Origin: a virus
Lineage: Duplodnaviria > Caudoviricetes
Direction: 5' to 3' (one strand)
Length of the DNA: 30,201 bases
IMG/VR virus record: IMGVR_UViG_3300027804_000166
Span: 1 to 30,201 of that record
Position numbers and translations under genes: made by a program. Below, one piece after another: positions 1-12,520 of the stretch; position 1 is the stretch's first letter, and every line of letters starts with the position of its first letter. The notes beneath the pieces were generated by a model. That model was not told the DNA's origin and searched no databases. It saw nothing but the letters and a program-made list of their open reading frames with translations.

Positions 1-825
1 GTGTTCGTTGCCGAACGGATCGGAACCATGATGGCTGAATGCCGTGTTATTGTCGAAGACATTGCAACCGGCCAGCTTGGTCCCGCTGTTCGGGCTTAGA
101 TACCGATTCGGTGCGGTGCGCTTGTAGCCATACTTGACCAGCAACTCTCCGATATTGTGCGCTGCATTATAGGCATCGATCACCGATGTGCCGGGATTGG
201 GCGCGCGAACCCGAACCGGGGCCTGATATTCCGGCCTGATCTTCCACGGGCACAAGTCAAGCATCTGTGGGCGGAACTTGTCCCATTCGTCCCACATAAC
301 TTGCAACTGCTTCGACAAGATCGGAATCTGATCGAAGGGCAATCCCTCCCACACATAGGGCTGCATCGTGTCTGGATGGATCGACGGAGGCAGCACATCT
401 TGCACCGGCCCACCGCGAAGCTCAAAGACGGTCGTATTGCCACGTCCATCCTTGTTCGGCCATGCAATGGAATGGCGGGAGAGGTCATCCCGATGGGCGC
501 GGAAGATCAGCTTGCCACGCCCCTCCCGCCCACGGATTCTGGCGGTTGATGCCATCAAGGCGTCAAGGTCTAGCCCCAGCCCATCGAAGATGATCCGGGT
601 CCATTCCATGTGATCGATGTCAATGGCGCAGGTGCCAGTCCATTGATGGATGAGGCCGACATTCCAAGTCGGATTTTTGAAGTAGAAGTCGATGGCACCC
701 TGGCCGGTGAGCGCCTTGTCCTTCTGGTTCCATCCGTAAGATGTCGGCCCCTTCTGCCCTGCCGGGATCGGGACAAGATACCAGCCGAGGTCAGTGTATT
801 GCTTGATGCTCGCGGTGATGGTCAT
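1..825 (-). CDS. Bifunctional DNA primase/polymerase (Prim-Pol, AEP superfamily), N-terminal part; continues beyond the left edge
   Basis: Hand translation from ATG at 825, directly after the TAA of the HTH gene: MTITASIKQYTDLGWYLVPIPAGQKGP...WNVGLIHQWTGTCAIDIDH...FELRGGPVQDVLPPSIHPDTMQPYVW. Shows the Prim-Pol W-x-x-x-P start, NVG, DxD and PPSIHP motifs. Open to base 1, so absent from the ORF track. Confidence 0.9.
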   Translation of the reverse strand, partial: MTITASIKQYTDLGWYLVPIPAGQKGPTSYGWNQKDKALTGQGAIDFYFKNPTWNVGLIHQWTGTCAIDIDHMEWTRIIFDGLGLDLDALMASTARIRGREGRGKLIFRAHRDDLSRHSIAWPNKDGRGNTTVFELRGGPVQDVLPPSIHPDTMQPYVWEGLPFDQIPILSKQLQVMWDEWDKFRPQMLDLCPWKIRPEYQAPVRVRAPNPGTSVIDAYNAAHNIGELLVKYGYKRTAPNRYLSPNSGTKLAGCNVFDNNTAFSHHGSDPFGNEH

Positions 826-996
826 TTATGTGCGGCCTTCAAAAAACTCCGTGAGCAGCTTGATCGTCTCGTATCGAGCGCCGGGAGCGCCATCCCGAAT
901 GGCCTTGATCGTGTTGTAGGAAAGGCCGGTGGCCTTGACGATTTCGGGAATATCAGCCCCGGCAAGTCGGGCACGAATCTCTTCAATGGATAGCAT
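826..996 (-). CDS. Small Cro-like HTH DNA-binding protein (56 aa)
   Basis: MLSIEEIRARLAGADIPEIVKATGLSYNTIKAIRDGAPGARYETIKLL has an XRE/Cro-type HTH pattern. AGGAG RBS (1004-1008, minus) precedes ATG 996, and the stop abuts the primase ATG. Confidence 0.8.
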   Translation of the reverse strand: MLSIEEIRARLAGADIPEIVKATGLSYNTIKAIRDGAPGARYETIKLLTEFFEGRT

Positions 997-1017
997 GGTC
1001 AGTCTCCTGCTTGGTGA

Positions 1018-1060
1018 TTGCAATTTTTTCTATTGCACGCATTTCAGAAATATGCAATAA
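1018..1060. promoter_or_regulatory. AT-rich divergent promoter/operator region with imperfect palindrome
   Basis: TATTGCA(1031-37)-cgc-ATTTC-a-GAAAT-a-TGCAATA(1053-59) lies between divergent genes and gives TTGCA -35-like boxes on both strands. Confidence 0.55.
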
Positions 1061-1090
1061 GCCATTCCGTTGAGAGAAAAGGAGGCTGAC

Positions 1091-1474
1091 ATGAGCAGCA
1101 ACGTAACGGGCCTTTGCGGGGCCTGGCTAGAGGCCAAACGCCGCGAAGACGAAGCCATTGAGGCGCGTCGCAAGATCGAGCAAGACATCACCGAAGCACT
1201 GGACGCAAAGACCGAAGGCGCGATTACGCACAAGGTCGAGCCGTATCGGGTGACGCTCACCCAGCCGATCTATCGCAAGATCGATCTGGCAATCTGGGAG
1301 ACCGTCAAGCACGACATGCCCGCCGAGGCTTGGCCGATCAAGGTCAAGATCGAAGTGGACGATGCCGGATGCAAGTGGCTGGCAAAAGAACGGCCAGATC
1401 TCTGGTCCATCGCTGCCAAGGCAATCACGGCCACGCCGGGAAAGATCGGCGTCAAGGTGGTGGCCGATGAGTAA
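1091..1474 (+). CDS. Conserved phage early hypothetical protein (N-terminal coiled coil)
   Basis: Strong RBS AAAGGAGG before ATG 1091; phage-like codon usage; first gene of the rightward block. Confidence 0.8.
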   Translation: MSSNVTGLCGAWLEAKRREDEAIEARRKIEQDITEALDAKTEGAITHKVEPYRVTLTQPIYRKIDLAIWETVKHDMPAEAWPIKVKIEVDDAGCKWLAKERPDLWSIAAKAITATPGKIGVKVVADE

Positions 1475-1640
1475 GGACATCTACGGAGCCGCAGACGCAT
1501 TGCAGTATGCGCGAGACCACCTCGTCATTGCAAAGACTGACAAGGTAAACCGCGACCATCATGTGCGGTGCGCTGTTGAGAACCTGCGCGAGGCAATGCG
1601 GATACTCGGAGTTAAGGAGGCCGAGAACGATGGCAATTGA
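1467..1640 (+). CDS. Hypothetical protein (57 aa)
   Basis: MSKDIYGAADALQYARDHL...; overlaps both neighbours as in a coupled operon. Confidence 0.65.
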   Translation: MSKDIYGAADALQYARDHLVIAKTDKVNRDHHVRCAVENLREAMRILGVKEAENDGN

Positions 1641-2385
1641 TCTAAAGAAACTGGAGCGCCCGAAAGGGCAACGGCCCATCATCGCAACAGTGTTCGGTGA
1701 GGGCGGCATGGGCAAGAGCACGCTGGCTGCGATGTTCCCGAGGCCGGTCTTTATCCGCACCGAGGACGGCACGGCTTCGCTTGCTGGCAACGATGAAGTG
1801 ATGCTTTTCCCGCTGGTCTCATCGAGCCAGGAAGTGCTTGACCAGATCGAGGCACTGGCAACGCAAGAGCATGACTTCAAGACGGTCGTGATTGATAGCA
1901 TCACGCAGCTTGCCACGCTCATCGAGCATGAGATTGTTGCAGCCGATCCCAAGGCCAAGAGCATCAACCAAGCCGGTGGCGGTTACGGCGCTGGATATAA
2001 TACCGCCGCCGAGAAGCACCGGCAGGTTCGGGAATGGGCTGGCGCACTGGCCTACGAACGCGGGATGAACGTGGTGTTCATCGGCCATGCTGACACCGAG
2101 ACGCTCGATCTGCCAGACTTCGATCCATTCGCCAGATACACCGTGCGAATGCACAAGAAGTCACTGCCACACTATACCGACAACGTAGACTTGGTGGGCC
2201 TGATCCGGCTCAAGACCTACGTTCGAGGTGATGGCGACAAGAAGCGCGCAATCAGCACAGGCGACCGGGAGATCATCTGCTTCCCGCAAGCCTCGAGCGT
2301 GACCAAGAACCGTTTCAACATCACCCAGCCGCTGCCGTTCACATTCGAGAGCGGCAACCCTTTTGAACCTTTTGTAGCCAAATAG
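1630..2385 (+). CDS. AAA_24-family ATPase, Sak4-like single-strand annealing/recombination protein
   Basis: Walker A GEGGMGKST, Walker B VVIDS, GGYGAGY, FIGH and KNRF motifs; AAGGAGG RBS; adjacent to an SSB gene. Confidence 0.85.
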   Translation: MAIDLKKLERPKGQRPIIATVFGEGGMGKSTLAAMFPRPVFIRTEDGTASLAGNDEVMLFPLVSSSQEVLDQIEALATQEHDFKTVVIDSITQLATLIEHEIVAADPKAKSINQAGGGYGAGYNTAAEKHRQVREWAGALAYERGMNVVFIGHADTETLDLPDFDPFARYTVRMHKKSLPHYTDNVDLVGLIRLKTYVRGDGDKKRAISTGDREIICFPQASSVTKNRFNITQPLPFTFESGNPFEPFVAK

Positions 2386-2394
2386 GAGAAGAGA

Positions 2395-2847
2395 ATGAGA
2401 CTGAATGGATTCGATGCGAATGTCGTGGAACCGAGTGCGCCGCGCGAAACGATCCCGGCTGGCAAGTACAAGGCCGTGATTACCAAGAGCGAGGAGCGCC
2501 CCACCAAGGCACAGACCGGCTCGATGCTGGTGCTCACCTGCCAGATCATCGAAGGGCCGCATCAAGGCGTGAGCCTGATGGACCGGCTCAACCTCAACAA
2601 CCCGAACAAGACGGCGGAAGAGATTGCCCAGCGCACGCTCTCGGCCATTTGCCGCTCGGTTGGTGTCATGATGCCGAACGAGAGTTCTGACCTCCACGAC
2701 AAGCCGCTCATGATCACGGTCAAGGTCAAGCCAGCAGAGGGCAACTATCAGGCATCGAATGAGATTGCCGGATACGAGCCGTGCGAAGGCGGCGCACCGG
2801 CTGCTGCACCTGCGGCGGCTGCAACGCCACCCTGGAAGAAGAAGTAA
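2395..2847 (+). CDS. DUF669-family phage ssDNA-binding protein
   Basis: IPAGKYKAVI...L...IIEGP..G..L.DRLNL.N pattern; Ala/Pro-rich tail ending PPWKKK; follows the Sak4-like gene. Confidence 0.8.
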   Translation: MRLNGFDANVVEPSAPRETIPAGKYKAVITKSEERPTKAQTGSMLVLTCQIIEGPHQGVSLMDRLNLNNPNKTAEEIAQRTLSAICRSVGVMMPNESSDLHDKPLMITVKVKPAEGNYQASNEIAGYEPCEGGAPAAAPAAAATPPWKKK

Positions 2848-2867
2848 TTAGATACTGGACAAAAACG

Positions 2868-2889
2868 GCGGGCGTCTACGGACGCTCGC
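2868..2889 (+). other. Stable UNCG-tetraloop hairpin (RNA stability, processing or weak terminator)
   Basis: GCGGGCGTC-TACG-GACGCTCGC: 9-bp stem with one G-U pair, cUACGg loop, no U-tract on the + strand. Confidence 0.55.
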
Positions 2890-2920
2890 AACCAATATAA
2901 AAGCATCAAAGGAGGCAATA

Positions 2921-3811
2921 ATGAGCACTATGAATGATGAATCCAAAATTCGCGCTAGGGTGTTTGATGTGATTCGGCGCGTTTTAGATGTTCCTCCACT
3001 TAAAGTTAACAATGCACGCAAAGATTTTCTTGCCCCACCCCCTATGTCGTCATTCAGAGGCGTTGATCCAGCTTTGCTTTACGAAGGAGATGACTGGTGG
3101 ATATTTAATGTTAGAGAATGCACGCCAAGCATCGTATGGCCGATTGATGTCTGTCTAATACGCGGCAGTTGTGATTTTTATGATATGTATATGATGCGGC
3201 TTAGGTCTGTGACGCCGAAAGAAGTGAGAGGCTATGCCTCGCGGGTAAGCCCATTCATGCTTAGGAAAGATGTTGCAGTTCACGACAGAGGCAAACTTAT
3301 CACGGCATCTACTCTTCTTTCTTTTGTTGGCGGTCATTGGTCAGATGCACAAAAAAGAACACTCTGGGGAGGAACGGCAGACAATCCTGTCCCTGTTCGC
3401 ACGGGCTATGTTTCTGATGGCTATCTGGATTTTGGCGGGGTGGCCATCGGCGTAGCATTGCGCCAGCGTTATGAGTGGGCGGTCAACGTCGGATTTCCGA
3501 ACACACCATCGGTTCGGATAGCGACAGATCCAACTGGCATGAAAGAACTATTTCGTCTCCGTGACGTGCAGCCAGGTAGGGATCGTCGTGACGCGTTGAT
3601 GAATTGGGTGTCAGATCATTGGCGACAGAACCGTCACGATCCAGATGTCGAGATATATGTTCGCAAGCATATGCGTGGTGGAACGCAGTTCGATTGGCGC
3701 GGCTTTAGCTGCGAAATCATTCCTGCACGTTTTGACATTGAACAAACCGAAAAGTTCATTGCGGAGCGCGCCGCGATGCGTGTTGCTGGCAGTGACCATC
3801 GTTATGTCTAA
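2921..3811 (+). CDS. Hypothetical accessory protein (296 aa)
   Basis: Long ORF with AAAGGAGG RBS; codons visibly more AT-rich than neighbours; no family recognised. Confidence 0.8.
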   Translation: MSTMNDESKIRARVFDVIRRVLDVPPLKVNNARKDFLAPPPMSSFRGVDPALLYEGDDWWIFNVRECTPSIVWPIDVCLIRGSCDFYDMYMMRLRSVTPKEVRGYASRVSPFMLRKDVAVHDRGKLITASTLLSFVGGHWSDAQKRTLWGGTADNPVPVRTGYVSDGYLDFGGVAIGVALRQRYEWAVNVGFPNTPSVRIATDPTGMKELFRLRDVQPGRDRRDALMNWVSDHWRQNRHDPDVEIYVRKHMRGGTQFDWRGFSCEIIPARFDIEQTEKFIAERAAMRVAGSDHRYV

Positions 3812-3834
3812 GTGCACCACTAAAGGGATTAAGA

Positions 3835-4305
3835 ATGACCACCGACACCTATGCAATCGAACGCCTGATGAAGCAGCAGCTAGACGGCAACTTCTGGAGT
3901 TTTGATGTCGAAGGCCGCATCGTCTGGAACGATGTGCCAGTTGACTATATCCCACAATTTAAACGCTACACGTGGACAGATGGAGAAGAGGATCGGCCTA
4001 AAGCGCAAATGGTTCGCCGCGATTGGTCGATGGATGACTTCCGGCGGATCGAGAAGCTGCGGATCAAGAGGCGATTCTGGAATCAAATTGCCAAGAACTT
4101 CGGCGCAAGCGAAACGGCTACGAGCGACTTCTACAAGCGTGTCATTGCCCAGCAAAACGAGAACATGACGAAAGAAGTCACAATCAGGCGGTTGAAGATC
4201 ATCAAGTGGATGCACGACGAAGGCATCAATGCAAAAGCAATTAGCATGTTTATGCACTATGATCGAAGGATGATCGAGAGCATTACCGGGAGCGAAAACG
4301 AATGA
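3835..4305 (+). CDS. Putative DNA-binding protein with GcrA/Myb-like HTH
   Basis: W-x3-D...L...W..IAKNFGAS pattern plus a second HTH-like segment (DEGINAKAISMFM); ATGA overlap with the next gene. Confidence 0.55.
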   Translation: MTTDTYAIERLMKQQLDGNFWSFDVEGRIVWNDVPVDYIPQFKRYTWTDGEEDRPKAQMVRRDWSMDDFRRIEKLRIKRRFWNQIAKNFGASETATSDFYKRVIAQQNENMTKEVTIRRLKIIKWMHDEGINAKAISMFMHYDRRMIESITGSENE

Positions 4306-5231
4306 AACTAGACATGACATCGCCAATCGTAAAGGCGATCTATCAGCGTTACGAAGAGAACCGCCGCAACGCACACAGGCCGCACCTTGGCGGGTCGCAG
4401 ATCGGAAACACTTGCGCCCGTGCTCTCTGGTATCAATTCCGGTGGACCTATACCGAGAAGTATGAAGGCCGCATCTTGCGCCTCTTCGAGACGGGAGAAC
4501 GCGAGGAACTGCGAGTAATCCAGAACCTGCGTGCCGCCGGTTGCACGGTCTGGGATCGCGATCCGGCAACAGGCCAGCAGTTCCGATACACGGCGGTTGG
4601 CGGGCATTTCGCCTTGAGCCTGGACGGAGTGGTCGAAGGCTTGCCGGAAAGTTCCAAGGTCCACACGCTCGAAGTGAAGACCATGAGCGAGAAGTATTTC
4701 AAGGTGCTTTGCAACCTCGGAGTCGAGAAGGCGAAGCCGATCTACTATGCACAGTGCCAGATCGGAATGCACTTGAGCGGGCTGGATCGCTGCCTGTTCA
4801 TTTCGGTCAACAAGAACACCGACGAGATTTACGCAGAGCGGCTCAAGATCGATCATGCCTTTGCAGAGTCGCTTATCGAGAAGGCCAGAAAGATCATATT
4901 GACCGAACGGCCACCGCTTGGCATCAGCAATGATCCGGCATGGTTTGAGTGCAAGTTCTGTCCGTATCATTCGATCTGCCACGGAGATGGTGCAGCGGAA
5001 CTGAACTGCCGCACATGCGCCTTCTCGACGGCAGAGACCGAAGGCTGGTCATGCGCAAGGCATAAGAAGGCACTCGATGAGATCGACCAGCGCAGCGGCT
5101 GCGGTGATCACATATACAATCCGGCGCTAGTGAAGCTTCCGGTGCATGACAGCGGCGAGGACTGGATCGACTACATCAACGAAGACGGCGAGATCGTGCG
5201 GAACAAGGGAAGGGAGTTTTTCACATGCTAG
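4302..5231 (+). CDS. Cas4-like PD-(D/E)XK exonuclease
   Basis: N-terminal Cys (GNTCAR), LDG...LEVKT catalytic motif, YYAQCQ, C-terminal CKFCPYHSIC Fe-S-type cluster plus a further Cys-rich segment. Confidence 0.85.
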   Translation: MKLDMTSPIVKAIYQRYEENRRNAHRPHLGGSQIGNTCARALWYQFRWTYTEKYEGRILRLFETGEREELRVIQNLRAAGCTVWDRDPATGQQFRYTAVGGHFALSLDGVVEGLPESSKVHTLEVKTMSEKYFKVLCNLGVEKAKPIYYAQCQIGMHLSGLDRCLFISVNKNTDEIYAERLKIDHAFAESLIEKARKIILTERPPLGISNDPAWFECKFCPYHSICHGDGAAELNCRTCAFSTAETEGWSCARHKKALDEIDQRSGCGDHIYNPALVKLPVHDSGEDWIDYINEDGEIVRNKGREFFTC

Positions 5232-6850
5232 AACTCCGCCCATATCAACGCGCCGCGATTGATGGCCTATACAATTATTGGTCAGACAAGAAGGGTGACA
5301 ACCCGATCATCGTTGCTCCGACCGGCTCTGGCAAGAGCCTCATCATCGCGCATCTTATCAAGGATGCGATGAGTTATCCCGGCACGCGCGTTTTGATCTT
5401 GACGCATGTCAAGGAGTTGCTGGAGCAGAACGCTAGCGAGTTGGTGGCGCTTTATCCCGATGCAGATGTCGGCTTCTACAGCGCCAGCCTCAAGAAGAAA
5501 GTGCTGCGGAAGCCGATCACGTTCGCTGGCATCCAGTCGATTCACAAAAAGGCTTATGACATGGTGCCAGCGCCCGATCTGGTGATCGTGGACGAGGCGC
5601 ACCTGATCCCGAAAACGGACGGCACACGCTACAACAAGTTCCTCTCTGACCTTCGCGTGTGCAATCCCGGCGTTAAGGTGGTCGGTCTTACGGCCACGCC
5701 CTACCGGCTTGATAGTGGCTGGCTGCACGAGGGCGACAATGCGATCTTTGACGGCATTGCATACGATATTCCGGTTGCCGATCTTATGGAGCAAGGCTTC
5801 CTGGCCCCGGTGATTAGCAAGAGCGGCGTCAAGACTATCGATCTCTCGAACGTCGGCAAACGCGGCGGGGAGTATATCGAGAGCGAACTAGCCAAGGCTG
5901 CATCTGATCCGGAATTGGTAACAGAAACAGTTGCAGAAATCGTGCGCTATGGTGCGGAGCGCAAGGCGTGGCTGGTCTTTGCTTGCGGTGTCAATCACGC
6001 CGAGTTGCTCCGTGCCGAGTTCGAGACGCATGGCATCGAGGCGGATGTCGTGACGGGTGCCGATGGCATGAGCGCACGCGCCGACAAGATCGAGCGGTTC
6101 CGGCATGGCGGAAGCAAGTGTTTGATCAACGTCAACGTCTTGACCACCGGCTTCAATGTCCCGCATGTCGATCTTGTAGCAATCGTGAGGGCAACCGAAA
6201 GCACCGGTCTCTACATTCAGATTGTTGGACGCGGCACACGCATTGCGCCGGGGAAAGAGAACTGCTTAGTGCTGGACTACGGCGACAACGTGATGCGCCA
6301 CGGATTCATTGATGAGGTCAAGCCAAAGATCAAAGGGCAATCACAAAATGGCGAAGCACCGAGAAAGAAATGTCCAGCGTGTTTGACTATAAACAATGCT
6401 TCCGCTAAAGCATGTACCGAGTGTTTAACTCCATTCCCGCCTCCGCAGTTCAACCACGGAACGAAGGCATATTCTGGCGCGATGATCTCCACACAGGTAC
6501 AGGCCGAATGGGTTGACGTTGACGATGTGGGCTATTCCCGCTGGCGCAAGGAAGGCAAGCCAGACAGCATCCGCATCACCTATTATTGCGGCCTGATCAA
6601 GGTCTCCGAGTGGCTATGCCCTGATCACGGAGGCTATGCTTCGGAGCGATACCAGAAGCGGATGCCATCGCTAGGAGCGTCTGCCATGACCACCGAAGAC
6701 GCCATGCAAGAGTGCGACCATTGGATCAAGCCGCGCAGGATAAAGGTGAAGCCGAATGACAAGTTCCACGACATTGTACAACTCGACTATAGCCAGCCCA
6801 AGCGCCTCACCGCCGCAGAATTGGCAGAACTCCAAGAGCCGCTGTTCTGA
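5225..6850 (+). CDS. SF2 DEAH helicase (RadD/YejH-like) with C-terminal zinc finger
   Basis: Motifs LRPYQ, APTGSGKS, DEAH, TAT, LTTGFN, QIVGRGTR; CPAC..CTEC zinc finger. Confidence 0.92.
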   Translation: MLELRPYQRAAIDGLYNYWSDKKGDNPIIVAPTGSGKSLIIAHLIKDAMSYPGTRVLILTHVKELLEQNASELVALYPDADVGFYSASLKKKVLRKPITFAGIQSIHKKAYDMVPAPDLVIVDEAHLIPKTDGTRYNKFLSDLRVCNPGVKVVGLTATPYRLDSGWLHEGDNAIFDGIAYDIPVADLMEQGFLAPVISKSGVKTIDLSNVGKRGGEYIESELAKAASDPELVTETVAEIVRYGAERKAWLVFACGVNHAELLRAEFETHGIEADVVTGADGMSARADKIERFRHGGSKCLINVNVLTTGFNVPHVDLVAIVRATESTGLYIQIVGRGTRIAPGKENCLVLDYGDNVMRHGFIDEVKPKIKGQSQNGEAPRKKCPACLTINNASAKACTECLTPFPPPQFNHGTKAYSGAMISTQVQAEWVDVDDVGYSRWRKEGKPDSIRITYYCGLIKVSEWLCPDHGGYASERYQKRMPSLGASAMTTEDAMQECDHWIKPRRIKVKPNDKFHDIVQLDYSQPKRLTAAELAELQEPLF

Positions 6851-6959
6851 TTGCGTGAGCCTGTACGATGCTCGATATTGCACTCATTGGCGTGACGTTG
6901 TACCTGACGAGGTACAGAAAGAAGGCTGCGATGCGTTCAACGGTTTCCCTCCCTTCTGA
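6756..6959 (+). CDS. Small Cys-rich hypothetical protein overlapping the helicase 3' end
   Basis: CSDC...YC..W...VP...Q..GC..F...PPF four-Cys pattern; bridges helicase and VRR-NUC genes. Start uncertain. Confidence 0.5.
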   Translation: MTSSTTLYNSTIASPSASPPQNWQNSKSRCSDCVSLYDARYCTHWRDVVPDEVQKEGCDAFNGFPPF

Positions 6960-7302
6960 ACATGATGAACAAGCCGGATTCGTTCAATGGTTCCGCGCCA
7001 AGTGGCCTCGTGTATTGATATTTGCAATACCTAATGGCGGCAAGCGCAACATCTCGACGGCAAAGAAGCTGAAGGCTGAAGGTGTCGTTCCTGGCGTGCC
7101 AGACCTGTTCATTCCGGCATGGGGAATCTGGATCGAGATGAAACGCCAGAAAGGCGGGCGCACATCATCCGATCAGGATGACATGATTTCATACTTGGAG
7201 AACGTGGGCCATCGCGTTATTGTTGGTTATGGTGCAACCGATGCCAGCGACAAGCTGCTGTCTTTGTTGAATATGAGCGGGGCGGCGACTAAAGGAGGAT
7301 AG
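6931..7302 (+). CDS. VRR-NUC domain nuclease (putative Holliday junction resolvase)
   Basis: SEHDEQ, FAIPNGG, GVVPGVPDL, IEMK and Q..M...L...G motifs. Confidence 0.88.
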   Translation: MRSTVSLPSEHDEQAGFVQWFRAKWPRVLIFAIPNGGKRNISTAKKLKAEGVVPGVPDLFIPAWGIWIEMKRQKGGRTSSDQDDMISYLENVGHRVIVGYGATDASDKLLSLLNMSGAATKGG

Positions 7303-7355
7303 CCACCGCCCCTAGCACCCGGGGGAGCAAACCGGATGCTTACATTAACGATTGA
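7275..7355 (-). ncRNA. Candidate two-hairpin sRNA with anti-Shine-Dalgarno loops (cuckoo/CcsR-like)
   Basis: Minus strand: GCATCCGG-TTTGCTCCC-CCGGGTGC-TA-GGGGCGGTGGCTA-TCCTCCTT-TAGTCGCCGCCCC. Both stems pair fully only on this strand (three G-U pairs become A-C mismatches on +). A promoter lies just upstream. Ends are approximate. Confidence 0.6.
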
Positions 7356-7385
7356 TTGAGAACTCTAGTCTAGGCTTGCCATAGT
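7356..7385 (+). promoter_or_regulatory. Possible rightward promoter for the 7402-9101 gene cluster
   Basis: TTGAGA(7356-61)-N18-CATAGT(7380-85) with TGn extension, followed by an AAGGAGGA RBS. Confidence 0.4.
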
Positions 7386-7390
7386 TTCAA
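7362..7390 (-). promoter_or_regulatory. Sigma70-like promoter for the candidate sRNA
   Basis: TTGAAA(7390-7385)-N17-TAGAGT(7367-7362) on the minus strand. Confidence 0.55.
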
Positions 7391-7401
7391 GGAGGAACAT
7401 C

Positions 7402-7614
7402 ATGGCTAAATACGAATACGATGCCACACAAGACCAGTGGCTTCATGGTGATCCGGGCGTACTGTCCGGTTCAGTGGCCGCTGCTGATCAGCGGTATGCC
7501 AAGCCTACCCAGATCAGGGAGAGCTGTGCCCCTCGGCTCTCCCTGACAGACTGGCTGATCTGCGGCCCTATAATGGTCGGACTTGGTTTCCTCATGGGAG
7601 TTTACTGGCCGTGA
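7402..7614 (+). CDS. Small membrane protein (C-terminal TM helix)
   Basis: Strong RBS AAGGAGGA; hydrophobic C-terminus WLICGPIMVGLGFLMGVYWP. Confidence 0.7.
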   Translation: MAKYEYDATQDQWLHGDPGVLSGSVAAADQRYAKPTQIRESCAPRLSLTDWLICGPIMVGLGFLMGVYWP

Positions 7615-8006
7615 TGAGGTATCTTGTTCTGATCGCCGCGATGACGGCTGGAAGTGTCTTGGCTCATGCTTCGGATGCGACTCGATTGGTTACATCGGAG
7701 GCTAGACGGCAAGGCGTGCCGGTCGGATTCGCGTTGAAGATGGCAAAGATTGAGAGCGGTGTTCGATGCCACAACCACAACAAGCGAAGCAGTGCATCAG
7801 GCCCCTTGCAAGTGCTGCGTGGCACAGCGCGGGCTATGGGCTACCGAGGCGACATCCGGCGCGCATCGTGCGCTACGCAGACGCATTACGGCATGAAACA
7901 CTTGGCTATGTGCTGGCGCGGAGCACGAGGCAATGCGGCCTTGGCGAAACGATGCCACCAAGTTGGCGTGTCTGTGTTGTACGGCAAAAAGAAGAGGAGG
8001 CGTTAA
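7611..8006 (+). CDS. Secreted SLT-like lytic transglycosylase
   Basis: Signal peptide (MMRYLVLIAAMTAGSVLAHA), catalytic motif AKIESG, SSASGPLQV...TARAMG, and YGMKHL motif. Confidence 0.75.
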   Translation: MMRYLVLIAAMTAGSVLAHASDATRLVTSEARRQGVPVGFALKMAKIESGVRCHNHNKRSSASGPLQVLRGTARAMGYRGDIRRASCATQTHYGMKHLAMCWRGARGNAALAKRCHQVGVSVLYGKKKRRR

Positions 8007-8170
8007 TGACCAGAGAACCTGATCTTGAAACCGTCAATCGCGCATTGGGCGAGACGGTGAGGAAATTGCAGCAAGACTTGGCCGATGCTGACAGAAGAAT
8101 CCGGCGGCTTCGAGAGGAGTTGGCAGAGGCGCATAGAGCAGCAGCACTAGCATCTGGGAGGGATTGGTGA
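8006..8170 (+). CDS. Small coiled-coil hypothetical protein
   Basis: TAATG coupling and GAGGAGG RBS; heptad pattern VRKLQQDLADADRRIRRLREEL. Confidence 0.7.
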   Translation: MTREPDLETVNRALGETVRKLQQDLADADRRIRRLREELAEAHRAAALASGRDW

Positions 8171-8412
8171 GTGAAGGAATGGATGATGATCAATTTGCCC
8201 ACATGCTCAAGCTCTCAATTGTTTATATCTCAGTGCTCAAGAGCCGATGTCTGTTTGATGATCTGCGAAAGATGGACAGTTCAGAAGAACACAACGCCTT
8301 GAACTGTCTGGAGATCGTGGCTGACACCTTCGTGGAGATGCAACGCAGACTGAGCGCGAAACCGAAGTTTAGGGTCAAAGCCCGCGCCGCACTCTCAGGA
8401 GACAAGCAATGA
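8167..8412 (+). CDS. Hypothetical protein
   Basis: GTGA overlap with the previous gene (alternative start ATG 8179) and ATGA overlap with the next. Confidence 0.6.
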   Translation: MSEGMDDDQFAHMLKLSIVYISVLKSRCLFDDLRKMDSSEEHNALNCLEIVADTFVEMQRRLSAKPKFRVKARAALSGDKQ

Positions 8413-8594
8413 TCAAGGCTGAGCAAATACCAGACGAGGTGGTGGAGGCTTTTGTAGATGTCTACTACACCAAAGATATGACCCGCAAAGCCGCCATCGC
8501 CGCCGCTCTCAATGCGTGGCCGGGGGCTTGGCATGTTGATGCCGCTGACTTCGAGGAGAAGCTAATCCTCCCGCTGACACAGGAGAAGCCATGA
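8409..8594 (+). CDS. Hypothetical protein (61 aa)
   Basis: AGGAG RBS and ATGA overlaps on both sides. Confidence 0.65.
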   Translation: MIKAEQIPDEVVEAFVDVYYTKDMTRKAAIAAALNAWPGAWHVDAADFEEKLILPLTQEKP

Positions 8595-8827
8595 GGCGGT
8601 TTCGCCACATGCCTATCCCGCAGCACGCGCACCCGCTGGTGCGCCGTCTGTACGCGGAGATGAACAGCCAGCGGATCGGCGTCACCGACATGGCCGAGCG
8701 GACGGGCATCGCACGGAACACGTTCAAGGGCTGGCGAACGCGGCACTGCCCGCGCGTCGCGGAACTGGAGGCATGCTATAACGTCCTTGGAATGAAACTG
8801 ACGGTAAAGGTGGTGAGAGATGACTGA
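8591..8827 (+). CDS. XRE-family HTH protein
   Basis: IGVTDMAERTGIARNTFKGWR...P....LEAC.NVLG pattern; AGGAG RBS. Confidence 0.8.
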   Translation: MRRFRHMPIPQHAHPLVRRLYAEMNSQRIGVTDMAERTGIARNTFKGWRTRHCPRVAELEACYNVLGMKLTVKVVRDD

Positions 8828-9101
8828 CATCCTAGACGAACGCGAGAAGACCCACGGCGACTATTACCGTGTCGCCATGATGGCGCAATCGATCAAAGAA
8901 GCAATGTGCGTTGGCGACAACTGGGAAGAACTCGACCATCTGCAACGCGAGTCTCTAGAGATGATCGCCAGCAAGATTGGCCGCATCCTGTCAGGCAACC
9001 CGCACGAGGTCGATCACTGGCGGGACATCGCTGGCTACGCCACGCTGATCGAGCGGTGGCTTACACCACCGGCTGACCTCGAAACCAAGCTTGACCGTTG
9101 A
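8820..9101 (+). CDS. DUF6378-like phage protein
   Basis: ILDEREKTHGD...KIGRI..G.....DHWRDIAGYA signature. Confidence 0.75.
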   Translation: MTDILDEREKTHGDYYRVAMMAQSIKEAMCVGDNWEELDHLQRESLEMIASKIGRILSGNPHEVDHWRDIAGYATLIERWLTPPADLETKLDR

Positions 9102-10017
9102 TGACGCGGCAGAACTCTGGCTCCAGCAACATGCCACTAGGTGCGAAATGCAATACAGTAAAGCCCTGTGACCAGTTCACGGGGTTATCCTCCGCATAGG
9201 CAAACTTGTCGTTATCAGGTCCGTAATCCGAAAGCGTTCCGCATTCGACGCCCCAGCGAAGGCCATTGTAATCCGCAAACATGGTAGCCTGGAGCCGATG
9301 CGTGTGGCCGGTCACAATAGACTTGCCGCTCTTCAATGTGTTGTTATAGGCCCCATGCACGCCTTGGTGAATGCGATGCTTTACAACCGTATGCTCGTTC
9401 AGCCATAGGCTTGTGCAGAACTGCCACGCAGGAAAGTGGTCTGCGATGTCGAATCCTTGCACCTGTACATATTCCGGCGCTGCTTGAGCCAGCCTCGCCA
9501 TGAAGCGATTGTCGTGATTGCCATCGGTCCACATGAGATAGCAGCCGGGAGGTGCATAAGCCTCAATCTCTGCATGACGTTCCTTGACGGCTTCTAGTTC
9601 TTCAGCCACGCTTGGCGTCTGGACACGCGCGCCTGGCGGATGACGGCTGATCTTCGCACCGTCGAAACTGTCGCCGTTCATGATGACCATCGACGGTTGC
9701 AAGTCCTTGATGATTTCAATCATGGCCGCAAACGCCTTGCTGCGCTCGCCCGGCCAGAAATGTCCGTCGCTGCCGATGATGACGGGGCCGACAACATTCT
9801 CTTTTAGCGCGCGAAAACCTTTTGTCGGCACCTCGATCTTGACCCGCTGGGCGGGCTGCGAGATCGTGTTCAGAATGATTCCATGCTTGCGCTCAAGGCT
9901 ATCCCGTCGAGCGTTAACGCCGCGCAAGTTGAGGCCCAATTCTTTGGATACGGCAGACGGTGATCCAAGACGCTTCCATGCGTCAATGAATTCTTGATCG
10001 GAGTATTTCTGGACCAT
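9061..10017 (-). CDS. Calcineurin-like metallophosphoesterase with N-terminal HTH-like segment
   Basis: All five motifs present: SDGH, GDSFD, GNHD, H, GHTH. N-terminus GSPSAVSKELGLNLRGV is HTH-like. Confidence 0.85.
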   Translation of the reverse strand: MVQKYSDQEFIDAWKRLGSPSAVSKELGLNLRGVNARRDSLERKHGIILNTISQPAQRVKIEVPTKGFRALKENVVGPVIIGSDGHFWPGERSKAFAAMIEIIKDLQPSMVIMNGDSFDGAKISRHPPGARVQTPSVAEELEAVKERHAEIEAYAPPGCYLMWTDGNHDNRFMARLAQAAPEYVQVQGFDIADHFPAWQFCTSLWLNEHTVVKHRIHQGVHGAYNNTLKSGKSIVTGHTHRLQATMFADYNGLRWGVECGTLSDYGPDNDKFAYAEDNPVNWSQGFTVLHFAPSGMLLEPEFCRVINGQAWFRGQPVV

Positions 10018-10020
10018 TTG

Positions 10021-10269
10021 CTACTCCTGCGCGCGGCGGAAGTTGAGCCGCCAGATCACATCTGCAACTTGCTTGCCGAGATTGTCGATCTGCTTTTCTT
10101 CTGCTTCTGGAAAGACAAGATGCGCCACTTCGTGAGCGGCAATCTCCAAGAGCAGCTTCGGCTTCTGGAGAAGACGCGGGTCTAGCTGGATATGATCTTC
10201 GCCAATATAGGCCCAGCCCCAAGCACGCTCACAGGTCTTCCATTCGATGGTGATCTTGCGGCGTGCCAT
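10021..10269 (-). CDS. Minimal HEXXH zinc metalloprotease-like protein (82 aa)
   Basis: MARRKITIEW...WGWA...IQLDP...AAHEVAH...E; GAGG RBS before ATG 10269. Confidence 0.7.
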   Translation of the reverse strand: MARRKITIEWKTCERAWGWAYIGEDHIQLDPRLLQKPKLLLEIAAHEVAHLVFPEAEEKQIDNLGKQVADVIWRLNFRRAQE

Positions 10270-10273
10270 AGTG

Positions 10274-10504
10274 TTACCTCTTGCATCGCTTCCGGCGGTG
10301 ATCCCATTCGCCGCCACGGCGGATGCAGTCACGCCATTCTTTTTCTTTCTCGGGCGGCATTCGTTTCATTAGGAACGGCAACGATGCCTTGAACATAACA
10401 ACGCCAAGGCCGAACCAAAAGGATGGCCTTTGAGCGACGAGAAAGCCGCCAGCGCCAATGCCGATGAACAGCACGACGATGGCGGCAATCTCGATCCAGT
10501 TCAC
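10274..10504 (-). CDS. Lysis-cassette membrane protein with C-terminal C-x3-GG-x-W-x6-C motif
   Basis: Two hydrophobic segments and a basic Cys-pair tail; GTGA overlap with the holin. Confidence 0.65.
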   Translation of the reverse strand: MNWIEIAAIVVLFIGIGAGGFLVAQRPSFWFGLGVVMFKASLPFLMKRMPPEKEKEWRDCIRRGGEWDHRRKRCKR

Positions 10505-10662
10505 TTCTTGGCCCAGATAGACCAGCCAGCGGCGAAAATGACGCCGAGCGCACCGATGATCTCGTTCATGGCGGTGGCGTCAATAACTCCGGTTCCGACA
10601 ACATAGCCGCCACCAGCCGCGAGAACGGCGCGAACAACGCCCCAGACCATTTCTTTTGTCAT
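10501..10662 (-). CDS. Putative holin (53 aa, 2 TM; Pam3-gp28-like)
   Basis: Hand translation MTKEMVWGVVRAVLAAGGGYVVGTGVIDATAMNEIIGALGVIFAAGWSIWAKK; TGATG-coupled to the endolysin; below the ORF-track length cut-off. Confidence 0.75.
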   Translation of the reverse strand: MTKEMVWGVVRAVLAAGGGYVVGTGVIDATAMNEIIGALGVIFAAGWSIWAKK

Positions 10663-11084
10663 CACTTACTTCCTTTTGTTGTGCCGGGATACTGCTTCCA
10701 CGGCAGTTGAAAATGTGGCCCGTCCTTGAACGAAACCCAGTCACCGCCCCACTCTAGCAACACGTTCTCAGCCTTTGCCGCTGCCTTCATTCGCTTGGCA
10801 AGGCTATCGTATAAAGGCCAGTCCCAGCGCACCTGGCCTTTGATCGTGCAAGCCAAATCAACAGCGTGTGAAAAACCATTTGCCGCAGGAATATGGCGAG
10901 ACCGTAACGTCTTGGATGCGCGCTTGGCCTTGAGGATTTTTTGCTCCTCAAGAGTGCGAACGCCGCAGGTGACTATGAAGCCTGTGTCGGCATCCTTCCA
11001 ATCACCAGCGCATCGATTTACCACACGCACCAGATCGGGATGAACGCCTTTCAGTTTGACAAAGGACACGCTGTTCAATTTCAT
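10662..11084 (-). CDS. Endolysin, M15-family L-Ala-D-Glu peptidase
   Basis: LKGVHPDL, RTLEEQ, SRH...AVD and WGGDW..FKDGPHFQL zinc-peptidase motifs. Confidence 0.92.
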   Translation of the reverse strand: MKLNSVSFVKLKGVHPDLVRVVNRCAGDWKDADTGFIVTCGVRTLEEQKILKAKRASKTLRSRHIPAANGFSHAVDLACTIKGQVRWDWPLYDSLAKRMKAAAKAENVLLEWGGDWVSFKDGPHFQLPWKQYPGTTKGSK

Positions 11085-11323
11085 TTCCTCAAGGCCTCCT
11101 CGATGCTGTCGAGCTTCGCCATGATGGCGCGGCTTGTCTCACGAATCTCCTTGATCTCTCGATCATGCGCTGTACGAGATGTTTCGGTCTGCGCTTGCAG
11201 AACTGCGATGGCTGTCTCGTGCGCCTGTTGCTGGCGGTAGATAACCCAGACAAACGCGGCCACTGGCGCGATGATCCATTGCATGATGGCCCCGAGCACC
11301 TTGAAGGTCTGATCGTCAATCAT
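11081..11323 (-). CDS. Lysis-associated membrane protein (N-terminal TM plus coiled coil)
   Basis: MIDDQTFKVLGAIMQWIIAPVAAFVWVIY followed by heptad repeats; ATGA-coupled to the endolysin. Confidence 0.7.
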   Translation of the reverse strand: MIDDQTFKVLGAIMQWIIAPVAAFVWVIYRQQQAHETAIAVLQAQTETSRTAHDREIKEIRETSRAIMAKLDSIEEALRK

Positions 11324-11333
11324 GGAACACCAT

Positions 11334-11543
11334 TCATATCTTGACTGCGTATTGGTTGAGCATGAAGTCAATCGCCAAGCCGCTGTCTCCAAATAAAAGC
11401 ATCTCGGTAGGAGGCAGTGGTTGCCGCGCAATGCTGACCGTTCCGCTTCCAATGATAAGCGAAAGCGATTGCGTAGGTTGCTCTTGGTTCATGTCCAGGC
11501 TGATGGTCTGAGCCGGATTGTTGACGATTAGCGAAACAGTCAT
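11334..11543 (-). CDS. Small putative virion protein (69 aa)
   Basis: ATGA-coupled to the upstream tail gene; beta-rich; ends LLFGDSGLAIDFMLNQYAVKI. Confidence 0.6.
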   Translation of the reverse strand: MTVSLIVNNPAQTISLDMNQEQPTQSLSLIIGSGTVSIARQPLPPTEMLLFGDSGLAIDFMLNQYAVKI

Positions 11544-11881
11544 GTCGTGATGTCCTCGCGCACATCAATCTTGAATGTTTCGGTGCTTTCAACGCCACCA
11601 CTTGTGAACTGTATGTCGCAATACATGATACTGTCGTTGTCTTCGTCAGACACCGGCCACAATGCGGTGTTCGCTGCCGTCTGCGAGAGCGTGAAGCTAC
11701 CAGTTGCAGGTGCGCTAATCGTCACCGTCAAGGATTGCGAAAAGCCGCCGTTCCGCACCATTGCCGCAACCGTGTAACCGATAAGGCTAAACGATGCCGG
11801 AACTGCGGTGAGACGTTGGCATGACAACGAAAGAGTATCGCCGCGCTTGAATGTGATCGTTTTGGTGATTGGCGTTGCCAT
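11540..11881 (-). CDS. Tail fibre adaptor/collar-like protein (BppU/LtfC-like Ig fold)
   Basis: KRGDT...G.F.L...T..WP...DIQ...TETF.I.V..DIT pattern typical of tail-tip adaptors. Confidence 0.6.
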   Translation of the reverse strand: MATPITKTITFKRGDTLSLSCQRLTAVPASFSLIGYTVAAMVRNGGFSQSLTVTISAPATGSFTLSQTAANTALWPVSDEDNDSIMYCDIQFTSGGVESTETFKIDVREDITT

Positions 11882-11893
11882 TGCTTTATTCCT

Positions 11894-12520
11894 TTATGGC
11901 AGTGAAGCATATTCGCGGCGGCGGAACATCCAGACTTTTCCGGCAGCTATGCTGTCGCCAGTGAACGATATGCGAGCGCGCAATATTTTCTGTGCTGGCG
12001 TGTCATACATGGCTGAATCTACGTCAATCTGACCGCTAAATGCGCCATTCCTGTAGGTCATTGTCATGACAAAATGAGAAGTACTCTCAAGTCTTGGGAA
12101 ATAAAATTCTGCATGATATCCAAAGTCTTGAGTATTGGTTCCCTGCTCTGACTGTCTGACCAATCGATATGCTGCATCTGTTTGCTTGAATGCTTCCAAC
12201 TGAAGCCGACGGTCAGTTCCGATTAAAGCAGCGTTATGCCTTAATCCCAAAGCCAAAACGCGGTATTCGTAGCCATCTACGAAATCAGGCGTCACAACAC
12301 TAGGGACTGTTCCAGTCACTGCGTGATCATAGATCAACCCAGTCTTGCCATCGCCAATCGTCACCTTGTCGTAGGGATGCCAGCCAGAAACCATGACAGG
12401 CGCACCAGAAGATGCTTCTGCAATAGCCGAAGGATTGTCGCGCAATGCTGTCACGGTAGTGCTAGACGGAATACCGCCGACAGCAACCGCTGCGTTTGAG
12501 ATGCTGGTCCATGTCGTCAT
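11894..12520 (-). CDS. Tail tip/fibre protein
   Basis: MTTWTSISN...ALRDNPSAIAE.SSGAP N-terminus; TGATG-coupled to the hub gene; AT-richer C-terminal half. Confidence 0.65.
   Translation of the reverse strand: MTTWTSISNAAVAVGGIPSSTTVTALRDNPSAIAEASSGAPVMVSGWHPYDKVTIGDGKTGLIYDHAVTGTVPSVVTPDFVDGYEYRVLALGLRHNAALIGTDRRLQLEAFKQTDAAYRLVRQSEQGTNTQDFGYHAEFYFPRLESTSHFVMTMTYRNGAFSGQIDVDSAMYDTPAQKILRARISFTGDSIAAGKVWMFRRREYASLP

Follow-up and report, generated by a model that had tools for sequence, protein, structure and literature searches.

We identified, in the phage DNA analyzed here (the window, 30,201 nt, an uncultured virus record with 76% completeness in IMG/VR), a probable structured non-coding RNA of two adjacent hairpins that overlaps the last gene of the replication module. 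With moderate confidence we read it as an RNA that would act in trans to repress early translation, in a phage that is apparently lytic, and that is equipped with two seeds: one loop would pair with Shine-Dalgarno (SD) sequences and a different loop with the start-codon region. A preliminary description of this DNA had proposed a riboregulator that either shuts down early or host translation or mimics a host stress sRNA; repression of early translation stands as the best reading, the cuckoo-type mimicry does not.

The predicted small RNA (∼78-82 nt; 7275..7356, minus strand) was delimited by fold and conservation, and its ends are predictions. Hairpin 1 (7314..7340) has 8 bp at 7339-7315, or 9 bp with the closing A-U pair 7340/7314; its loop UUUGCUCCC (7331-7323) includes the core UGCUC (7329-7325), the predicted seed for the start-codon region. 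Hairpin 2 (7279..7312) follows after a linker of 1-2 nt, with 13 bp, an invariant GGGGCGG/CCGCCCC base and a covarying upper stem; in its loop UCCUCCUU the anti-SD sequence CCUCCUU (7298-7292) is the predicted seed for the SD. Both hairpins, of 8 and 13 bp, lie on the minus strand where the preliminary description had put them, and its count of three G-U pairs (1 + 2) was correct, as was the antisense overlap with the 3′-end of the VRR-NUC gene (6868..7302, plus strand), which ends inside hairpin 2. On the minus strand the stretch 7255-7356 folds with -42.8 kcal/mol (z -5.5, 0/200 shuffles as good), compared with -33.2 kcal/mol (z -1.6, 15/200 shuffles) on the plus strand. In two metatranscriptome contig sets (shares 0.16 and 0.05) there is an uninformative gap at 7314-7367; such contigs show no strand, end or level.

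Three other identities were rejected. A CsrA sponge or a terminator on the plus strand is ruled out by A-C mismatches, and loop 1 has no GGA in the GCGAGCA alleles; a small ORF inside the RNA amounts to a single, unconserved AUG-UAA; and an antitoxin of type I for the neighboring 70-aa ORF is at odds with the lack of that ORF in L035-L040.

A sigma70-type promoter-like site, TTGAAA-N17-TAGAGT (7362..7390, minus strand), precedes the hairpins, with TTGAAA at 7390-7385, a spacer of 17 nt and TAGAGT at 7367-7362; the predicted start is near 7356-7355. Within positions 1-12000 we counted 7 promoter-like sites versus 7.8 expected, and in the window AAGGAGG occurs 5 times versus 2.5 expected (10/100 shuffles as high). 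Neither is above chance in the window alone; both gain weight solely from relatives. There the pattern TTG-N17-TAnnnT was seen in 23/25 distinct upstream regions, 7-42 nt ahead of hairpin 1, with spacers that have diverged and are always 17 nt long; its frequency in shuffles was 6.6%, and on the other strand it was found in 5/25 regions. The promoter of the preliminary description is thus present and its pattern kept; the -10 box is TAGAAT in most close relatives, and leader length varies after it. The TTG and the divergent gene's SD overlap in some lineages. In several relatives (L043-L047, L044, L376) the TTGCA/TGCAA boxes found between cro and DUF7173 (1018-1060) recur near the RNA promoter, which suggests shared operators or overlapping divergent promoters. 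A clear U-tract after hairpin 2 is missing in most members; read-through is therefore possible.

We examined 80 of 291 related loci from a VRR-NUC search. The element was present in 48 of the 49 closer loci (L001-L048, L053), the one miss being a locus that ends at the gene. VRR-NUC identity among carrier loci goes down to ∼66%, L053 apart; many of these loci are near-identical, and they represent about seven lineages. In the other 31 of the 80 loci the element was not found by blastn, nor in 18 of those 31 by model R1. A pattern scan of metagenomes yielded 20 loci, 9 of which added distinct members.

Covariation was assessed in alignment A7 (27 sequences, fitted to the model), where the nine pattern-found members carry the hairpin-2 base and CTCCT by construction; L219, L362 and L364, with no VRR context, were left out, and alignment A5, which includes them, gave similar counts. 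In A7, 94.9% of cells were paired, a share reached by 0/500 shuffles, and 16/24 pairs had changed on both sides, a count reached by 6/500; slid structures gave 39-58%. All 11 of the 11 model pairs of hairpin 1 showed change on both sides, and 99.7% of cells were paired in hairpin 2. An alignment-free count for hairpin 2 in 28 sequences gave 296 Watson-Crick, 63 G-U, 0 A-C and 5 other cells, and the minus strand had the better fold in 28/28. With covariation beyond controls and this strand bias, the element has the marks of a structured non-coding RNA. Covariation and structural conservation had been named in the preliminary description as checks on its non-coding minus-strand element with an anti-SD loop; the former is strong against controls and carries a one-strand G-U bias, the latter extends to 48/49 VRR-NUC-linked relatives. 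The stop position and the frame of VRR-NUC over hairpin 2 differ among relatives; therefore, coding does not explain the sequence conservation.

Loop 2 reads CCUCCUU in 44/48 members. The loop 1 alleles in the 48 members were UGCUCCC (25, in the over-sampled clade of the window), UGCUCGC (20, most lineages), CGCUCGC (2) and UGCUCCA (1). Taken by itself the hairpin-2 pattern has little specificity: we estimate ∼1,100 such stretches in genome contigs, mostly of GC-rich genomes. Among at least 120 loci with this pattern, from 7 of 64 parts of these contigs, the six with alphaproteobacterial titles that were put to model R1 gave no match, and viral pattern matches outside the clade mostly scored <33 bits. 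On the host side, 151 genomes from the class around G001 gave no match to model R2, a weak negative, with 32 candidates scored per genome and no positive control.

The assignment to the cuckoo/CcsR family made in the preliminary description did not hold. PMC4615179 defines this family by CCUCCUCCC in each loop; we found CCUCCUCCC in neither loop of the 48 members, in a comparison made without the allowed variants of Fig. 3C in that paper. In PMC8034643 CcsR follows a DUF1127 gene and is under an RpoH promoter; in the phage a DUF1127 neighbor is absent, the adjoining genes are VRR-NUC and the 70-aa ORF, and the promoter, TTG-N17-TAnnnT, is not RpoH-type. The geometry is that of cuckoo RNAs (2-4 hairpins next to each other, with helices of 6 bp or more and a linker of up to 10 nt), and loop 2, with 8 nt, is below the cuckoo loop range of 9-27 nt. 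The search with Rfam models (cuckoo, CcsR and ar14) that had been suggested as a check gave nothing over the element at gathering score, RF02791 and RF02344 included. The best Rfam match was CcsR1 (19 bits, E 0.028, versus a cut-off of 65.3); 15 loci scored 18-25 bits against CcsR1, ar14 or BjrC80 (cut-offs 59-80), with VRR-linked members at or below 18.8 bits, and sub-cut-off CcsR1 matches occurred also in 5/14 control genomes. Motif, score and context likewise leave the idea of mimicry of a host stress sRNA unsupported.

The phage RNA is like the cuckoo RNAs (CcsR1-4/RSs0680, RF02791; ar14, RF02344; PMC4615179, PMC8034643) in its two adjacent hairpins with covarying stems, anti-SD loop, G/C-rich terminal stem and probable alphaproteobacterial setting. 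Unlike them, it has two loops that differ from each other, occurs as a single phage copy, possesses its own sigma70-type promoter instead of being part of an RpoH-driven DUF1127 transcript, and has predicted targets in the phage's own genes. The family is absent from Rfam 15, and a literature search, covering mainly open-access papers and parts of their texts, returned no description of such a phage RNA. The motif may be, with no function assigned, among the 8,495 unnamed motifs that PMC10690425 predicted from IMG/VR. A more cuckoo-like two-hairpin element, with loops UCCUCCCUU and UUCCUCCUUC, was observed behind a small ORF of an unrelated viral contig (L219:297-372, minus strand, the same place as L695; CcsR1 24.4 bits, R2 48.7 bits), and similar hairpins with C/U loops occur in L126, L148, L150 and L160.

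According to protein annotation, the minus strand of the window carries a siphovirus-type virion arm and the plus strand an early arm, in the order DUF7173 (1091), a 57-aa gene (1467), Sak4, SSB, Cas4-type exonuclease, helicase and VRR-NUC, with a Cro-like HTH gene and a primase gene divergent from it. We infer an alphaproteobacterial host because the helicase is closest to that of Roseobacter phages CRP-901/902 (63% identity) and the top matches of the capsid are Azospirillum and Bradyrhizobium phages (45%). A search limited to the tyrosine type found no integrase in 5/5 near-complete relatives, each of which has a single strong copy of the RNA element, and no antirepressor was seen among the scanned proteins of the window and the left arm; the phage lineage is apparently lytic. 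The predicted model of DUF7173 (pLDDT 65.7, pTM 0.36) resembled no PDB entry with E up to 0.001; in the Atlas DUF7173 matched DUF7173 clusters only, and it was not found in 401 host-side genomes, a weak negative. One relative, L519, is a mosaic with RNA and helicase of the window type and an early region of the L530 type. A small transglycosylase-like protein (7614-8006) is encoded in the early arm away from the lysis genes, and in L035-L040 its gene directly follows the RNA promoter.

The SD matches of loop 2 given in the preliminary description, AAAGGAGG at 1078-1085 and 2908-2915 and AAGGAGGA at 7389-7396, were all confirmed. What it had missed is that both genes with AAAGGAGG begin with AUGAGCA, whose GAGCA is complementary to loop 1, in an order fitting an antiparallel duplex. 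Loop 1 is thus predicted, from the letters of the loop and of the gene starts, to be a second and different seed, for the start region (A/G)UGAGC, which lies immediately downstream of the SD matched by loop 2. The predicted target 1 (1078..1098, plus strand) combines the SD at 1078-1085 with AUGAGCAG of the first early gene (gene 1, DUF7173, 1091-1474); the duplex energies are -11.9 (loop 2) and -7.5 (loop 1) kcal/mol, and opening costs 3.2 kcal/mol at this SD and almost nothing at the start region. Target 2 (1455..1475, plus strand) is predicted where the next early gene begins (gene 2, 1467-1640); it is weak in the window (-6.4/-6.5 kcal/mol only, weak SD) and stronger in relatives. Target 3 (2908..2927, plus strand) is predicted at the SD at 2908-2915 and AUGAGCA of a 296-aa gene (2921-3811; -11.7/-6.9 kcal/mol). 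This gene has no PHROG or Pfam match and is patchy, being present in only two (L511, L515) of loci L502-L571, yet its SD is perfect and a loop-1 site accompanies it. At the SD with the 70-aa ORF (7389..7614, plus strand; ORF 7402-7614), divergent from the RNA promoter, only loop 2 matches (loop 1 -3.6 kcal/mol); the ORF has no Pfam match and is missing from some RNA carriers (no match in L035-L040). The number of bipartite matches in the window, 3 versus 0.9 expected (6/100 shuffles), is weak alone.

Among relatives the DUF7173 start varies (AUGAGCAG, AUGGGCA, GUGCGAG-AUG, AUGAGCAC), yet 5-7 possible pairs are kept. Mean helix energy at positions -8 to +12 was used to rank the full set of 16,384 heptamers for 28 gene queries, dropping nine with fewer than four lineages, so that 19 gene families remained. 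UGCUCGC ranked 3 for gene 1 and 2 for gene 2 (5 lineages), and its ranks were 167 with the methyltransferase, 266 with Sak4 and 511-11,313 in the 15 families that were left; gene 1 had been chosen after the match was seen, gene 2 had not been chosen beforehand. With gene starts called heuristically (some of them spurious), clustered against redundancy and drawn from lineages that are not independent, loop-1 sites at or below -10 kcal/mol occurred at 23/104 early starts, at 5/92 starts of the other arm and at 6/106 early starts of relatives lacking the RNA. When DUF7173 was excluded the counts were 19/101 early start clusters, 5/92 in the other arm (p 0.004) and 3/101 in RNA-less relatives (p 0.0002); in the RNA-less phages themselves there was no early excess (3/101 early versus 7/93 in the other arm). 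GC content of the start regions was matched within carriers (0.50, 0.48) and unmatched with respect to the relatives (0.39). In the contrast between early and other arm UGCUCGC stands at place 459 among the 16,384 heptamers, inside the top 2-3% and not at the top.

The RNA paired with its own gene-1 start outperformed permuted pairs (p 0.017, six lineages), whereas neither loop was significant by itself (p 0.061 for loop 2, 0.25 for loop 1). In L533 the loop CACUCCU occurs together with the SD AGGAGUG, and in L525 the Sak4 start GUGAGCAUUGA matches the phage's own loop 1 region; no contig was found with both a CCUCCUAC-loop RNA and gene 1, for which the predicted SD is UAGGAGG.

Several observations speak against pairing at the start region. 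Among 27 distinct DUF7173 starts from relatives with no R2 match, eight have a loop-1 site and 19 do not; one of the eight is CRP-902. In 50,000 of its 51,954 bases R2 gave no match, and a descriptor scan for a divergent RNA in phages of this type, which recovers only 3/5 positive controls, found none either. For gene 1 the window allele UGCUCCC comes only at rank 571. In 10 genomes the DUF7173 site is never first among the 110-358 bipartite sites, its ranks being 2-24, and in L580, whose contig does not include the RNA locus, the loop-1 site is broken. Met-Ser starts are common in bacteria. A small hairpin (1085-1099) lies around or next to the DUF7173 AUG, its stem changing on both sides between lineages: GCUG/CAGC, GUUGC/GCAGC, GCCCA/UGGGC, GUGC/GCAC (window; L573, L576, L580, L595, L605; CRP-902 gp13, L572). 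This hairpin may itself serve as a translational operator; as the gene-1 start has a covarying hairpin of its own, the gene-1 site is explicable without the RNA, and may be older than it. DUF7173 N-termini (n=120, P0001-P0120) were MSS/MST in 65, MH in 50, MG in 2, MI in 2 and MA in 1, a limited choice consistent with a nucleotide-level constraint at the start.

In the reading that we favor, host sigma70 polymerase, reading the minus strand where the replication operon ends, would make a stable RNA of ∼80 nt. Its loop 2 would pair with the SD of early genes and its loop 1 with the start-codon region, which follows after a few nucleotides, either both on one mRNA simultaneously or as two separate seeds, and the pairing would block entry of the 30S subunit and repress early translation. 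Such a stable RNA would accumulate with the rising number of genome copies, and delayed negative feedback on the early operon would therefore result, covering DUF7173, gene 2, Sak4 and several accessory early genes.

It is unlikely that the RNA chiefly hits host mRNAs with strong SDs, as a means of host take-over, with the matches to phage genes as a by-product. Loop 2 is indeed a generic, nearly invariant anti-SD (44/48) and the terminal stem resembles, at low score, those of the host sRNA models CcsR1 and BjrC80; loop-1 sites, however, are enriched at early phage starts in carriers only, loop and target co-vary weakly, and the phage's own strong SDs would be hit too. We find it distinctly unlikely that loop 2 represses alone, loop 1 being an element for protein binding or stability and the start match a product of the ancestral mRNA hairpin and common Met-Ser starts. 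The presence of the same gene-1 site in RNA-less CRP-902-type phages, the covariation of the mRNA hairpin by itself and the variability of loop 1 in the clade of the window would fit this account, whereas gene 2 and the enrichment seen after DUF7173 is excluded are independent of the mRNA hairpin.

A role in cis, as the 5′-end of a long RNA antisense to VRR-NUC and helicase or as a terminator or roadblock between convergent units, would suit the overlap with VRR-NUC and possible read-through where no clear U-tract follows hairpin 2; we consider it very unlikely, since conservation of the loop sequences is not required for such a role, folding of the plus strand is poor, and the element was not among the results of a terminator scan. 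Capture of a cuckoo/CcsR RNA that mimics a host stress RNA is highly improbable: the adjacent hairpins with C/U-rich loops, the CcsR1 top match and the L219 element with its R2 score speak for it, and against it stand the loops lacking CCUCCUCCC, the missing DUF1127 neighbor, the sigma70-type promoter and 18-25 bits against cut-offs of 59-80; a distant common descent may nevertheless link the two. Hardly any credence is due to a DNA hairpin or operator, or an unexpressed element, in spite of the TTGCA/TGCAA boxes near the promoter in several relatives; the one-strand G-U bias and the conserved promoter directly upstream argue for RNA.

By analogy, the repressor RNA that we favor would resemble in its action the C4 antisense RNA of phages P1/P7 more than CcsR, being a member of neither family. 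C4, as reviewed in PMC12197685, works in trans on mRNA of the phage that encodes it, in the region of a ribosome-binding site, with seeds likely placed in loops; here, in contrast, there are two simple hairpins and several predicted targets at starts in the replication operon, and no antirepressor target or integrase was found. With E values of up to 10 allowed, none of the C4 Rfam models matched within 7275-7345; a c4-a1b1 match with E 3.7 lies at 7477-7495. The chromosomal sRNAs OxyS (on fhlA) and RNAIII (on coa) use two loops to pair with two far-apart sites of one mRNA. They share with the phage RNA the two loops and two sites, whereas its predicted sites, on the SD and at the start codon, are separated by only a few nucleotides. 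Phages CRP-901 and CRP-902, characterized as strictly lytic in the accessible part of PMC10149686, where 'small RNA' is not mentioned, have the same replication module (primase-polymerase, Cro-like HTH, DUF7173, Sak4, SSB, helicase, VRR-NUC); their virion genes are different, and a search of 50,000 and 20,000 bases of them with the RNA model gave no match.

Early-gene shut-off in lytic phages with no polymerase or sigma factor of their own is often unexplained, and separate seeds for SD and start codon in a short RNA would provide specificity beyond that of a plain anti-SD loop. Natural allele pairs (L533, L525, L540) are ready-made compensatory tests, usable without the host. One could speculate, with little probability attached, that an integrase-less phage lineage uses the two-seed RNA as a repressor of the whole early operon, that a CtrA box ties it to the host cell cycle, leading to delayed lysis or exclusion of superinfecting kin, and that early starts have been shaped toward (A/G)UGAGC. 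The putative CtrA-like box TTAA-N7-TTGA (7345..7359, plus strand; consensus and the idea of lytic deferment from PMC9437464) covers the predicted start site. It is one of four CtrA-like sites in the window, and was seen in 12/25 upstream regions, from related lineages, against 7% in shuffles. In L045, L378 and L381 a TTAA-N7-TGAA box is located on the opposite strand.
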